Assembly: GCA_016204995.1 (NCBI GenBank)
Contig: JACQJR010000002.1
Span: forward strand, 96,551-160,550
DNA: 64,000 nucleotides
From: Candidatus Microgenomates bacterium
GTDB lineage: Bacteria; Patescibacteriota; Microgenomatia; UBA8517; JACQJR01
Reading direction: 5' to 3'
The notes below the pieces were generated by a model that was not told where the DNA came from, made no database searches, and worked only from the letters and a program-made list of their open reading frames with translations. Shown here piece by piece: positions 1,883 through 46,610 of the stretch (position 1 is the stretch's first letter; each line of letters opens with the position of its first letter). A program made the translations under genes and the position numbers.

Positions 1883-3405
1883 TTTATCTTTTCAATTTGC
1901 AGTCTTTTTTCTATTTTAATTTTACCTATTTTTGTTTCTTCCAAAAGTTTAGTTTTAGCAGTGACTTTGGCAAACCACTTTTCTTGCCTTTGCACATCAT
2001 TATTATCCTCTATGATTAAAAACCTAAATTTGTCGCAGCCTAAATGCGGCTCGCTATAAAATTCGGCCCCCGGAACATAGGTATATTTAGAGGTAATTGG
2101 GTAAGGAAAATTTTGATATTCGCAAGGCACAAAACCATATTTAGATCGGCCGTACCACCAAAATAAATATTGATAAGGATAATCTTTGTCAGAATCGGCG
2201 AGAAAATTATAGTTATTAAATCCGTCGCCTTCCCGATTTTCATAGATCCAATCTAAAGCTTTTAATTGATTGACAAGCAGACTAGGATTATCACTTATCT
2301 GTAAATCCCCCTGATAACGATTTTGAAAAAATGTAAGCTGCGATAAAAAAACGATTGTTAGTATCACAACCGCCAATTTTTTAGAGAAACTAGTCACCAT
2401 CAATATTAGAGAAATAAAAAGTAGTGGCGCGAGATATATGGTGTGCCAATCCCGCCAACCTTTGTTGGTGGCGAAAAATAAATACGATATTCCTAAAAGC
2501 GTCAGCACTAACATGACAAAATTTCTTTTAAAACCATTCCTTTCCGCTAGTAAAAATTTAATGGCCACGCCGATAACTATTATTAAACTGGCAAACAAAC
2601 TTTGCGGCGTCACACTCTGTTTGAGAATATTGACAAAATTAATCAAGGTAGCAGCAAAACTGGTGCCGGAAAAAATACCCACATTGCTGCTGCCTATGCT
2701 TTTAAAGCCTACTGTCAAAAATTGCCGACCTATTTCTAAAAGAAATATGACAGGGACCAAGGTAAAAATAGCAAATTCTCTCTTAGCTAGCTTTCCCTTT
2801 ACCACCGACCATAATCCTACCGCTAAGTAAAAAATAAATAAGGCGGCGGCACCAGCTAGATCCAGATTAAAAGCCAAAATTATCGGTAAAGTCGCCCAAT
2901 AAAAATATTTCTTTTGACCTGCCAAAAAACTACATAATAATAGAATTTCCGTGAAGGCCAAGAATACTAAAGGAAAAGGGTTAAAAGCGTAGCGGGAAGT
3001 TTCATAAAATGGCCAAAATATTTGCAAAGCCGCGCCAGTTAAAAGAGCCATATTCAAAGACACTCTTTTTGATAACTGCCAAATTACTACCGCCGTCGTG
3101 GCCAGTGATAACATTATTAATATAAAGACTCCGCCAAAAGGGTGACCGTTAAATAATTTGTAGCCGATAGATATGAAATAGTACCAACCAGGGCCGGCAA
3201 AAATTCCCGGAATACTTGTTTCCGGACCTTTGGTAAGAATTTGCCCCCGCCACCAGAATTCTCTAGCGTTGACTGCATCCTCGCCTTGATCAGTGGTAAA
3301 GAAAAAGTTGTTATTTTGCGTAGGCATTAAACGAATTATGAAGGCAAAAATTAAAATTAAAGCGCAAAATATCCAGAAGAACCTTTTAGGCATATTAGAT
3401 GTCAT
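1879..3405 (-). CDS. polytopic membrane protein, GT-C glycosyltransferase-like (PMT/ArnT-like)
   Basis: About 12 predicted TM segments and an aromatic-rich periplasmic C-terminal domain. Assigned from general architecture only. Confidence 0.35.
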   Translation of the reverse strand: MTSNMPKRFFWIFCALILIFAFIIRLMPTQNNNFFFTTDQGEDAVNAREFWWRGQILTKGPETSIPGIFAGPGWYYFISIGYKLFNGHPFGGVFILIMLSLATTAVVIWQLSKRVSLNMALLTGAALQIFWPFYETSRYAFNPFPLVFLAFTEILLLCSFLAGQKKYFYWATLPIILAFNLDLAGAAALFIFYLAVGLWSVVKGKLAKREFAIFTLVPVIFLLEIGRQFLTVGFKSIGSSNVGIFSGTSFAATLINFVNILKQSVTPQSLFASLIIVIGVAIKFLLAERNGFKRNFVMLVLTLLGISYLFFATNKGWRDWHTIYLAPLLFISLILMVTSFSKKLAVVILTIVFLSQLTFFQNRYQGDLQISDNPSLLVNQLKALDWIYENREGDGFNNYNFLADSDKDYPYQYLFWWYGRSKYGFVPCEYQNFPYPITSKYTYVPGAEFYSEPHLGCDKFRFLIIEDNNDVQRQEKWFAKVTAKTKLLEETKIGKIKIEKRLQIEKIN

Positions 3406-43767: not shown

Positions 43768-44385
43768 ATGTTCGGCGCACTAGAACCAACCCAGTTGATT
43801 ATTTTTATCTTGGCGTTACTTTCCGCCATCACTATTCATGAATTTTCTCACGCATTAATGGCTGACAAATTAGGCGATCCCACACCGCGTCTACAGGGCC
43901 GCTTAACCTTAAATCCCCTGGCCCATCTTGACCCCCTGGGTACCATCCTATTATTTTTAGTTCATTTTGGCTGGGGCAAACCGGTGCAGTTTGATCCTTA
44001 TAATTTGGCAAATCCGAGGCGCGACGCCGCCATTATTTCATTTGCCGGCCCGGCCAGTAATTTAATTTTGGCCGCCATTTTGGCACTTATTGCCCGCACC
44101 AATCCTCAAGCTTTACTGATACTGGTACCTTTTATCCAGCTTAATGTGGTGCTGGCAATTTTTAATTTAATTCCCATTCATCCTCTGGACGGCGGAAAAG
44201 TTTTAGTGGGATTGCTTGATCCGAAAACAGCCAGCGAAGTTGACAGATTTATGAGCCACTACGGCCTGATCATTTTGTTAATTCTAATCTTTCCTCTTTT
44301 TGGTGCACCTTTAATCTCTAGTATTTTATCGCCCATTCTTAACCTCATTCTTAATATTCTTCTACCCACCACACCTTTGATTTAA
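43768..44385 (+). CDS. M50-family (site-2 protease-like) membrane metalloprotease, small form
   Basis: HEFSHAL (HExxH) in TM1, polytopic, C-terminal LDGG-like motif (HPLDGGKV). Confidence 0.65.
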   Translation: MFGALEPTQLIIFILALLSAITIHEFSHALMADKLGDPTPRLQGRLTLNPLAHLDPLGTILLFLVHFGWGKPVQFDPYNLANPRRDAAIISFAGPASNLILAAILALIARTNPQALLILVPFIQLNVVLAIFNLIPIHPLDGGKVLVGLLDPKTASEVDRFMSHYGLIILLILIFPLFGAPLISSILSPILNLILNILLPTTPLI

Positions 44386-44417
44386 TCACCTGTGATGCCC
44401 TTTGATATCTTGACTCG

Positions 44418-44446
44418 CGCACTAAATTTTTATAAAATAACTTATC
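44418..44446 (+). promoter_or_regulatory. sigma70-like promoter (TTGACT-N17-TAAAAT) for the leader/ncRNA + tRNA operon
   Basis: Canonical hexamers with 17-nt spacing directly upstream of the structured leader and the tRNA-Thr/Tyr/Thr genes. Confidence 0.45.
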
Positions 44447-44655
44447 CCTGCCAAAGGGAGAAGCAAGGACCTTTTCCTTACCAAACACTTTTTCGGGAGA
44501 ACGAAGTTCGGCTTAGCCTCGGCTAAGAAGACAGTTCACCCACCTTTCTCTAACAAGGGAAAGAGCCTCATGCGCTACCCCAGGCAGGGATTTTATTACC
44601 CCACTAGTTTCCCAATCTACCACTTTTCTGATATAATTTCCCTTGAAGCTGGAAA

Positions 44656-44727
44656 GCCCTTCTAGCTCAATGGCAGAGCGACGGTTTTGTAAACCGCTGA
44701 CCGCAGTTCGATTCTGCGGAAGGGCTC
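44656..44727 (+). tRNA. tRNA-Thr (anticodon UGU)
   Basis: Cloverleaf folded by hand. 7-bp acceptor GCCCTTC/GAAGGGC, D-arm GCTC..GAGC, anticodon loop TTTGTAA, T-arm CGCAG-TTCGATT-CTGCG. One A-C mismatch at the top of the anticodon stem. Confidence 0.6.
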
Positions 44728-44730
44728 CGG

Positions 44731-44813
44731 GCCGTGGTGGCGGAGTGGGCAATCGCACCAGACTGTAAATCTGGCGCCGCAAGGCTGCGTAGGTTCGAAT
44801 CCTACCCACGGCA
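44731..44813 (+). tRNA. tRNA-Tyr (anticodon GUA), long variable arm
   Basis: Acceptor GCCGTGG/CCACGGC, anticodon stem CCAGA/TCTGG with loop CTGTAAA, long variable arm, T-arm GTAGG-TTCGAAT-CCTAC. Confidence 0.7.
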
Positions 44814-44897
44814 CTTAAATAGTGATGGGTTATGGGTTGTGAGTTATGGTTATGGACAAATATTCCGAACTCATCACTTTGAACCCATAACTATCTG

Positions 44898-44969
44898 GCC
44901 TAGGTGGCTCAGTGGTAGAGCACGTTCTTGGTAAGAACGGGGTCGCGGGTTCGATTCCCGCTCTAGGCT
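44898..44969 (+). tRNA. tRNA-Thr (anticodon GGU)
   Basis: Acceptor GCCTAGG/TCTAGGC (one G-U), D-arm GCTC-AGTGGTA-GAGC, anticodon stem CGTTC/GAACG with loop TTGGTAA, T-arm GCGGG-TTCGATT-CCCGC. Confidence 0.7.
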
Positions 44970-44993
44970 CATAATATAATGATGAGTTGAAGG

Positions 44994-45365
44994 TTGGGGG
45001 TTATGAGCGAGAATAATGGATTTAGATTTGAAGAATTACAAGTTTACCAAAGAGCTTTAAATTTTGCGAATGAAGTTTATGAAATCAGCAACCAATGGCC
45101 CAGAGAACATGTTTTTTCTTTAACAGATCAATTAAGAAGAGCATCACTCTCTGTAGCCTTAAATATTGCTGAAGGAGCAAGTAGAACTAAATTAGAATTT
45201 AAAAGATTTATAACTATTAGTAGGGGTTCCTGTCATGAATGCATCCCTATTATAGAAATAGCTTTTAGGCAAAAATTAATTGATATAAAAAGAAAGGAGG
45301 TATGGTTAAACGAGGTTACAACATTATCTAAAATGTTAAGTAAACTTAAGAGTTCAATAGTTTAA
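44994..45365 (+). CDS. four-helix-bundle protein (23S rRNA IVS protein family)
   Basis: ELQVYQRALNFANEVYEIS..QLRRASLSVALNIAEGASR family pattern. Inserted between tRNA-Thr and rpmG, flanked by 9-mer tandem repeats. Confidence 0.65.
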   Translation: MGVMSENNGFRFEELQVYQRALNFANEVYEISNQWPREHVFSLTDQLRRASLSVALNIAEGASRTKLEFKRFITISRGSCHECIPIIEIAFRQKLIDIKRKEVWLNEVTTLSKMLSKLKSSIV

Positions 45366-45399
45366 ATCATAACTATGAACTCTAAACTCATAACTAACT

Positions 45400-45780: not shown

Positions 45781-46059
45781 GTGATTGTAGCGAGCTATAC
45801 TTATTTCGTATACTACTTTTACATTCTCCGCAGCCTTAAAAATGGAAAGTTATACCTCGGTCAAACTTCCGACCTAAAAGCAAGAGTTAAATCCCACAAT
45901 AATGGAGAAAATAAAGCAACAAAACCAAATATCCCTTATGAACTTATCTTTTATTCTGCTTTCAAAGATGAAAAGGATGCAATTAATTGCGAAAAATATT
46001 TTAAGACAACAGCAGGCTGGAAAAGAATTCATAAAATGCTTGAGAACATAATAAAATAA
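45781..46059 (+). CDS. GIY-YIG nuclease-domain protein (small, stand-alone)
   Basis: YFYILRS..GKLYLGQTSDLKARVKSHNNG..E.Y.K matches the GIY-YIG (YxY..G.YIG.T.DL..R...H) pattern. The N-terminal ~10 codons of the ORF may not be translated. Confidence 0.55.
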   Translation: MIVASYTYFVYYFYILRSLKNGKLYLGQTSDLKARVKSHNNGENKATKPNIPYELIFYSAFKDEKDAINCEKYFKTTAGWKRIHKMLENIIK

Positions 46060-46127: not shown

Positions 46128-46610
46128 ATGAATGATAATCTTCACGAGGTAGCTATTACTGCGATCATCATTAAGGAGAATAAATATTTAATCATTAGAA
46201 GATCGCCTACTAAAAAGCGTTTTCCGGGCATGTGGACAGTGCCGGGCGGCAAACTGGAAACTACAGATTATCTTAATCTTCCAAAAGACACTAAAGATTA
46301 CTGGTACAATGTTTTAGAAAAAACCTTGGCCAGAGAAGTTAAGGAAGAAGTCGGCATAGAAATTAAAAATGTGGAATATTTAACCAGCCTTGCGACAGTT
46401 CATCCGGACGGCGCGCCATCACTCGTCATCTCCTGCACTGCCGAATATCAAGCCGGGGAAATTCAGCTACAAGCTGAAGAAGTAGATGAATTTGCCTGGG
46501 TCACACTTACCGAAGCCCAAAGTTACAACTTAATTGACGGTATTTTGGATGAGTTGGTTATGGCCGAGCAAAAACTCCACGGTCTTAAATCTGAATGGAA
46601 ACGCCATTGA
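46128..46610 (+). CDS. NUDIX hydrolase
   Basis: Nudix box GGKLETTDY..TLAREVKEEVGIE. Confidence 0.75.
   Translation: MNDNLHEVAITAIIIKENKYLIIRRSPTKKRFPGMWTVPGGKLETTDYLNLPKDTKDYWYNVLEKTLAREVKEEVGIEIKNVEYLTSLATVHPDGAPSLVISCTAEYQAGEIQLQAEEVDEFAWVTLTEAQSYNLIDGILDELVMAEQKLHGLKSEWKRH

Follow-up and report, generated by a model that had tools for sequence, protein, structure and literature searches.

The window (the whole stretch of DNA analysed, 64,000 nucleotides of a Candidatus Microgenomates contig) carries a gene for an M50 peptidase, assigned by Pfam, and a cluster of tRNA genes downstream of it. The closest relatives of the peptidase, at 55-69% amino-acid identity, come from Woesebacteria, Blackburnbacteria, Gottesmanbacteria and other Microgenomates of the Candidate Phyla Radiation (CPR). 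The tRNA genes start at 44656 (Thr-UGU), 44731 (Tyr), 44898 (Thr-GGU) and 45582 (Trp), which bears out the Thr/Tyr/Thr cluster of the preliminary description. Between the peptidase gene and the first tRNA lies the element that is the subject of this report (Table 1). The surroundings of the tRNA genes show several further features. The spacer between tRNA-Tyr and tRNA-Thr(GGU) (44815-44897) contains a 20-nt inverted repeat, 44829-44848 with 44872-44891, 80% complementary, which could be a processing hairpin or what is left of an inserted element. A gene for a 23S rRNA intervening-sequence protein (PF05635, 44994-45365) separates tRNA-Thr(GGU) from rpmG (L33, 45400-45573). It is flanked by CATAACTA-like direct repeats at 44879-44894, 45361-45376 and 45382-45397 (region 44879-45397), and these suggest an insertion of the gene into the tRNA/ribosomal-protein cluster. 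Directly downstream of tRNA-Trp, a small open reading frame (ORF) encodes a GIY-YIG nuclease domain (45781-46059; 92 aa, PF01541), followed by a NUDIX hydrolase gene (46128-46610).

Table 1. Features of the element and its immediate surroundings, in window coordinates
Feature	Position	Strand	Properties
Promoter of the RNA gene, sigma-70-type	44410-44438	+	-35 TTGACT 44410-44415, 17-nt spacer, -10 TAAAAT 44433-44438; score 10/12
Body of the probable 6S RNA (SsrS) homologue, first to last base of P1	44444-44591	+	148 nt; RF00013 match; R1 112.4 bits; fold z = -4.5
P1, 5' strand AUCCCUGCC	44444-44452	+	Pairs with 44583-44591, GGCAGGGAU; 9 bp
P2 region, 5' side	44456-44468	+	GGG 44456-58, AGC 44462-64, AGG 44466-68
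P3, 5' strand CUUUUCCUU	44471-44479	+	Pairs with 44555-44563, AAGGGAAAG; bubble-proximal "downstream" helix; predicted product RNA template
Central bubble, 5' strand ACCAAACACUUUUUC	44480-44494	+	15 nt; aligns with the unpaired 5' bubble of the Rfam 6S consensus
Apical ("upstream") arm	44495-44541	+	About 47 nt; three helices
Apical helix GGG/CCC	44495-97 / 44539-41	+	86% paired; 2/3 pairs compensatory
Apical helix GAAC/GUUC	44499-502 / 44534-37	+	78% paired; 3/4 pairs compensatory
Apical hairpin CUUAGC/GCUAAG	44512-17 / 44522-27	+	Loop CUCG; 82% paired; 6/6 pairs compensatory
Central bubble, 3' strand	44542-44554	+	13 nt; holds the 5' part of hairpin P6 (feature 44542-44558)
P6, CCUU/AAGG	44543-46 / 44555-58	+	AAGG coincides with the first 4 nt of the 3' strand of P3
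P2, 3' side	44566-44581	+	CCU 44566-68, GCU 44574-76, CCC 44579-81; irregular mid-stalk
U-rich tail UUUUAUU, probable 3' end/termination tract	44592-44598	+	Directly 3' of P1
Separate promoter-like site for the tRNA cluster, outside the RNA	44609-44637	+	TTCCCA-17-(TG)TATAAT, extended -10; score 10/12
tRNA-Thr(UGU), tRNA-Tyr(GUA), tRNA-Thr(GGU), outside the RNA	44656-44970	+	Syntenic neighbours

The element is widespread among related bacteria. A sample of 161 Microgenomates loci was formed from the window and 160 syntenic loci fetched for comparison. The nhmmer search placed the element in the window and 58 of these loci, and a covariance model (R1) built from 22 copies added ten more, several of them on the strand opposite the M50 gene. 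The resulting set of about 69 homologues never includes more than one copy per locus, and extends across Woese-, Blackburn-, Gottesman-, Ames- and Shapirobacteria. In Gottesmanbacteria and several other lineages the apical arm branches into an additional hairpin. Sense-strand R1 scores lie between 80 and 112 bits as opposed to 24-31 bits antisense, and an RNA read from the reverse strand was rejected on this basis. A protein-coding reading was likewise rejected, because no ORF is conserved in the 49 homologues compared: the longest sense-strand ORF reaches a median length of 27 codons, and the lengths of the element (median 158 nt) are spread over all three classes modulo 3. The absence of a plausible ORF noted in the preliminary description thus extends to the family. 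The 44-aa ORF at 44392 begins upstream of the -35 box.

About 150 nt long (44444 to about 44598), the element forms a gene of its own, with a separate promoter and a U-rich tail. The TTGACT-N17-TAAAAT promoter had been recognized in the preliminary description, and its position places the likely start of the RNA at about 44444-44445. Both signals are enriched in the family. Among the 49 homologues, 32 have a promoter scoring at least 9/12 whose end is 6-9 nt upstream of P1, as against 3.3% of random positions, and 65% have at least five T within 10 nt after P1, as against 18%. The near-consensus promoter, the tail and the median length are indirect hints that the RNA may be an abundant, discrete transcript of about 150-200 nt. 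In most loci tRNA-Thr(UGU) follows downstream on the same strand, and the intervening spacer usually has its own extended -10 box. The one in the window belongs to a second promoter-like site, overlooked earlier, that lies 19 nt upstream of tRNA-Thr; extended -10 boxes also occur between the RNA and tRNA-Thr in homologous loci, for example L081, L016 and L021.

These signals bear on the earlier proposal of one promoter driving a single leader of about 210 nt that is co-transcribed with the tRNAs. In its simplest form, this reading has the 44410 promoter drive a tRNA-Thr/Tyr/Thr precursor whose long, structured 5' leader is cut away by RNase P and has no independent function. In the window the element shares a strand with the tRNAs and lies 65 nt before tRNA-Thr, which agrees with this, and the U-tail is non-canonical as a terminator, so read-through is likely. 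However, with a second promoter in place, and similar boxes in homologues, the tRNAs need not rely on the promoter at 44410. The tRNA block is inverted to the opposite strand in eight loci (L003, L007, L011, L085, L086, L091, L104 and L106), and all eight keep the element, its promoter and its fold, which argues that the element is not a pre-tRNA leader. Covariation and a match to the 6S model, both described below, would also be unexpected for a discarded leader. Together, the separate promoter and U-tail, the inverted loci and the lack of a conserved ORF make a leader fail as a general explanation, and we consider it very improbable. Co-transcription appears genuine only in L119/L123, where the 8-nt spacer is too short for a promoter; the RNA there is judged, from this promoterless spacer, to be fused into one transcript with the tRNA-Thr(UGU) operon. 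In these loci (3157-3385), which belong to one Microgenomates lineage, tRNA-Thr(UGU) begins 8 nt past the last base of the RNA, and RNase P cleavage of the tRNA would thus make the 3' end of the 6S-like RNA.

The fold of the element is a rod. Its closing stalk measures about 30 bp, its bubble is open, with 15 nt on the 5' side and 13 nt plus a small hairpin on the 3' side, and an arm forms the apex. Dinucleotide shuffles of the + strand from 44444 to 44604 average -38.6 +/- 4.0 kcal/mol, and the actual sequence folds at -56.5 kcal/mol (z = -4.5); for the reverse strand, z is -2.6. In an alignment of 49 distinct sequences to R1, 88.3% of the cells are paired as opposed to 73.1% in column shuffles, and none of 500 shuffles reaches as high a value. 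Sliding the partners by 1-3 columns lowers pairing to 43-60%, and 26 of the 30 pairs show compensatory changes on both sides. The pair counts of this alignment (A4) are biased towards the model structure, to which it was fitted, but the trend is the same in a separate MAFFT alignment of 22 sequences, with 76.6% paired against 65.8% in shuffles and P1 at 94.5%. Covariation is seen in P1, in P3, in the apical helices T1 and Pb, and in the apical hairpin Pc. With the first MAFFT alignment, RNAalifold recovered P3 only.

The individual parts of the rod are supported to different degrees. In the 49 sequences, P1 is paired in 96.7% of cells and has compensatory changes in all eight of the pairs counted, with variants such as UCUCGC/GCGAGA, CCCUACC/GGUGGGG and GCCUAAG/CUUAGGC. 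Its core is the CCCTGCC/GGCAGGG helix of the preliminary description, which lies at 44446-44452 and 44583-44589, slightly off the positions first given, and extends to 9 bp. P3 is 88.5% paired in the same sequences, with compensatory changes in seven of nine pairs; its pairs in homologues include UAUUUUCC/GGAAAAUA, AAAUUUCC/GGAAAUUU and UAUUUUUC/GAAAAAUA. The sequence of P3, U-rich on one strand and A-rich on the other (UUUUUCCUC/GGGGAAAA), is unusually conserved, with an almost invariant U5CCUC/G4A4. The P2 helices (P2a, P2b and P2c) were misaligned by MAFFT (41-65% paired) and were therefore tested in each sequence by duplex energies. The linkers that join P1 to P3 are too variable for alignment, yet in any one sequence the two can pair with each other (mean z = -2.63, 66% at p <= 0.05 against shuffles; z = -1.31 for the window itself), which makes P1, P2 and P3 one irregular stalk. 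The bubble strands, which range from 11 to 21 nt and from 11 to 17 nt in the family, are non-complementary (mean z = -0.38, 8.5% at p <= 0.05) and vary in sequence.

Four local hairpins had been proposed from the sequence of the window, and they fared differently. The apical CUUAGC-cucg-GCUAAG hairpin covaries in all six pairs. The GAAC-gaa-GUUC hairpin gives way to another pairing, since the family pairs the same GAAC (44499-44502) with a distal GUUC (44534-44537). AAGGA/UCCUU and CUUUC/GAAAG can form in the window, but their nucleotides are used by P3 in the family, so that they are best regarded as alternative pairings; as a local hairpin, AAGGA/UCCUU yields to P2c and P3, long-range helices that covary.

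The 3' strand of the bubble holds the small hairpin P6. Hairpins of this type are commoner in the family than expected by chance (mean z = -2.9, 62% at p <= 0.05), and in 15 of 45 sequences, the window included, 4 nt are able to pair in both P6 and P3. A helix between the distal 5' bubble strand and the 3' strand past P6 (in L007, GCUUUUAAA/UUUAAAAGC) was rejected as part of the rod because it is incompatible with P3. The potential for such a bubble-collapse helix is weakly enriched family-wide (mean z = -0.89 against shuffles), and the distal-bubble helix is kept as a possible "collapse helix".

The rod described above has the known architecture of 6S RNA, in which about 200 nt form a closing stem and an apical stem on either side of a central bubble (PMC8876501). 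RF00013 (6S/SsrS) is the top match, at 44442-44594 on the + strand, covering the full length of the model (1-187) with 34.0 bits and E = 8.3e-6. RF00013 is also the top match of homologue L119 (29.2 bits, E = 1.2e-4) and of L007 (14.1 bits, E = 0.53). CCCUGC, GGGAG and CACCCACCU of the window align to ccCUgc, GGGag and caCCCACCUgg of the Rfam consensus, and CGGGAG (44494-44499) and CACCCACCU (44537-44545) fall on upper-case consensus positions and are conserved across the clade. The nucleotides most conserved in the clade are those conserved in the Rfam 6S consensus, and both bubble strands fall on the unpaired bubble of the model. We therefore consider it very probable that 44444 to about 44598 on the + strand is the ssrS gene of this bacterium, encoding the 6S RNA homologue of a CPR lineage. 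A 6S-like small RNA was one of the options raised in the preliminary description, and the full-length RF00013 match and the covarying rod with its central bubble favor it. Comparison with related spacers, which had been recommended as a check, gave conserved and covarying helices in the 49 sequences.

The branch is a divergent one. The Rfam gathering score of 46.4 bits, an operational annotation cut-off rather than a biological feature, is reached by none of the 21 copies scanned (the window and 20 homologous loci), and the best score of the window falls 12 bits short of it. The Gottesmanbacteria copy L016, which has the extra apical-arm hairpin, gives no 6S match at E <= 10. In the reciprocal test, the clade model R1 fails to detect E. 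coli ssrS. These three results describe the clade as a sub-threshold branch of 6S, and scores under the gathering cut-off explain why routine scans miss it. Scans with Rfam at the gathering threshold on 64 kb, and at E <= 10 on 461 nt (44300-44760), returned tRNAs and noise and no 6S. The 34-bit match is reported for the 161 nt from 44440 to 44600 and is lost to the speed filters of Infernal at 461 nt and 64 kb. Since these filters are laxer on short stretches, tight windows were rescanned. Negative Rfam scans of long stretches thus carry no weight as evidence that a divergent RNA is absent. The Rfam scan proposed earlier as a check was silent at 64 kb and 461 nt and positive for 6S on the tight window, and taking "no Rfam hit" as grounds for dismissal would wrongly have discarded the finding.

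The preliminary description had noted a resemblance to the CR-V/P4 region of RNase P RNA. In the window, GAAGUUCGGCUUAG...ACAGUUCACC recalls CR-V, and in some Microgenomatia the RNase P RNA is without P12 and low thresholds are needed to find it (PMC8172020), so a drastically reduced RNase P RNA was considered. No RNase P model matches at E <= 10 on either the 161-nt or the 461-nt window, in contrast to E = 8.3e-6 for 6S. The resemblance itself does not extend to the family: CGGCUUAG, with its CGGCUUA, belongs to the apical hairpin, a variable part of the fold, and homologues do not conserve it. The topology is also incompatible. In RNase P RNA, the long-range helix P4 pairs CR-I (GAGGAAAGUCC) with CR-V (ACAGAAnCCGGCUUA), and its 3' strand lies between P2' and P1'. 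The element has only 1-5 nt between P2' and P1', which leaves no room for the P4 3' strand and makes the pseudoknot impossible, and GAGGAAAGUCC is absent from the position required for CR-I. For want of a model match, a conserved motif and a topology compatible with P4, RNase P RNA was rejected, and we give it almost no credence. The two RNAs share closure by a terminal helix, proximity to tRNA genes and the local CR-V-like string. Unlike RNase P RNA (RF00010/RF00011, including the CPR forms of PMC8172020), the element lacks the P4 pseudoknot, CR-I and a specificity domain, and it is less than half the size. The divergent RNase P RNAs of CPR bacteria present a documented parallel to the detection problem met here (PMC8172020).

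On the features tested, the element would be a divergent member of the known 6S family, with a 6S function presumed from that membership. It shares with 6S of E. coli (ssrS, NC_000913.3 3055983-3056165) and with B. subtilis 6S-1 a rod of about 150-200 nt with closing stem, bubble and apical stem, conserved blocks flanking the bubble (GGGAG ... CACCCACCU, as in the Rfam consensus), a small 3' bubble hairpin that would compete with the downstream helix, a free-standing gene under a strong promoter, and a significant full-length match to the covariance model. It differs from E. coli 6S in its core of 148 nt as opposed to 183 nt and in a short apical arm (47 nt), which in some lineages bears an extra branch hairpin unusual for 6S. 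The downstream helix is strongly conserved and U-rich/A-rich. In contrast to known 6S RNAs, the RNA appears to be a primary transcript that runs from the start of P1 to the end of the U-tract and is not cut from a longer precursor, and its gene adjoins a tRNA-Thr/Tyr cluster in place of a 5-formyl-THF cyclo-ligase gene.

Some of these differences invite other readings of the same rod. One is that the RNA is specific to the clade, with the ancestry or shape of 6S and another job, for example as a scaffold for a different protein or in a role connected with the tRNA-Thr/Tyr operon. Scores under the Rfam threshold, the unusually strong conservation of P3, the extra branch hairpin of Gottesmanbacteria and others, and the near-constant linkage to tRNA-Thr(UGU), including the 8-nt spacer of L119/L123, are compatible with such a role. 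However, all architectural features of 6S are present, and the most conserved nucleotides coincide with its Rfam consensus. The bubble strands are variable, as in 6S and unlike a ligand-binding or catalytic pocket. The tRNA linkage outlasts inversion of the tRNA block, which points to inherited gene order rather than a functional unit. We regard this reading as quite unlikely. A related proposal keeps the RNA 6S-like but has it diverged in function, coupling transcription or processing of the tRNA operon to the availability of RNA polymerase, or binding a partner other than the sigma-70 holoenzyme, in bacteria whose regulatory repertoire is minimal. It draws on the near-invariant P3, the short and sometimes branched apical arm, the start exactly at P1 and the near-obligate linkage to the tRNA-Thr(UGU) operon, with the fusion in L119/L123, and we consider it unlikely as well. 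Ms1 RNA of Actinobacteria is described as a 6S-like RNA that binds the RNA polymerase core (PMC9130861); like the present element, it is a structured, 6S-shaped small RNA in a lineage without annotated canonical 6S. The Rfam scans gave no match to Ms1, and the element matches the 6S model itself.

As a 6S RNA, the element would act by the established mechanism, which in outline comprises open-promoter mimicry, synthesis of a product RNA and release (PMC8876501). The rod would mimic an open promoter and sit in the active-site cleft of the RNA polymerase holoenzyme carrying the primary sigma factor, and this occupation would damp transcription under nutrient scarcity. Upon the return of NTPs, the polymerase would copy the 5' strand of the bubble and the 5' strand of P3 into a short product RNA. 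Carrying U44 of E. coli through the Rfam alignment would place the start near C44481, with a product predicted to begin 5'-GUAAGGAAAAGG. The product RNA would unzip P3, and the freed 3' strand AAGGGAAAG could then re-pair with the 3' strand of the bubble and lengthen P6. The minimum-free-energy fold already contains CUUUCUCU/AGGGAAAG. Extension of P6 would result in release of the RNA. In E. coli, the 3' bubble hairpin drives release, and the sharing of nucleotides between this hairpin and the downstream helix is part of the release mechanisms of both E. coli and B. subtilis (PMC8876501). A "collapse helix" of the B. subtilis type is weakly indicated in this RNA.

The finding is an advance at the level of annotation and introduces no new principle. 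Standard annotation leaves 6S unannotated in this CPR class, and a search of the accessible literature on 6S RNA in CPR/Patescibacteria found no relevant paper. 6S RNA, which regulates transcription globally, is generally described as occurring in almost every bacterium. The gene closes a gap in the catalogue of non-coding RNAs of Microgenomates genomes, and such a catalogue is of use as a completeness marker, as RNase P RNA was in PMC8172020. Its presence suggests, by analogy with the 6S family, that these reduced and probably symbiotic bacteria would keep a growth-phase brake on RNA polymerase. Recognition of the gene also prevents its misreading as a tRNA leader or a fragment of RNase P RNA, and the 49 sequences, with their covariation, provide the seed for a clade-specific model.

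The spacer between the RNA and tRNA-Thr holds a further conserved sequence in Gottesmanbacteria-type loci. There, a conserved CTTCTTGACA follows the RNA (L016 3870-3940 and L021 3858-3928, and likewise L039, L010, L122, L116 and L160). It lies about 35 nt upstream of the extended -10 box TGATACAAT that precedes tRNA-Thr, a spacing too long for a single sigma-70 promoter.
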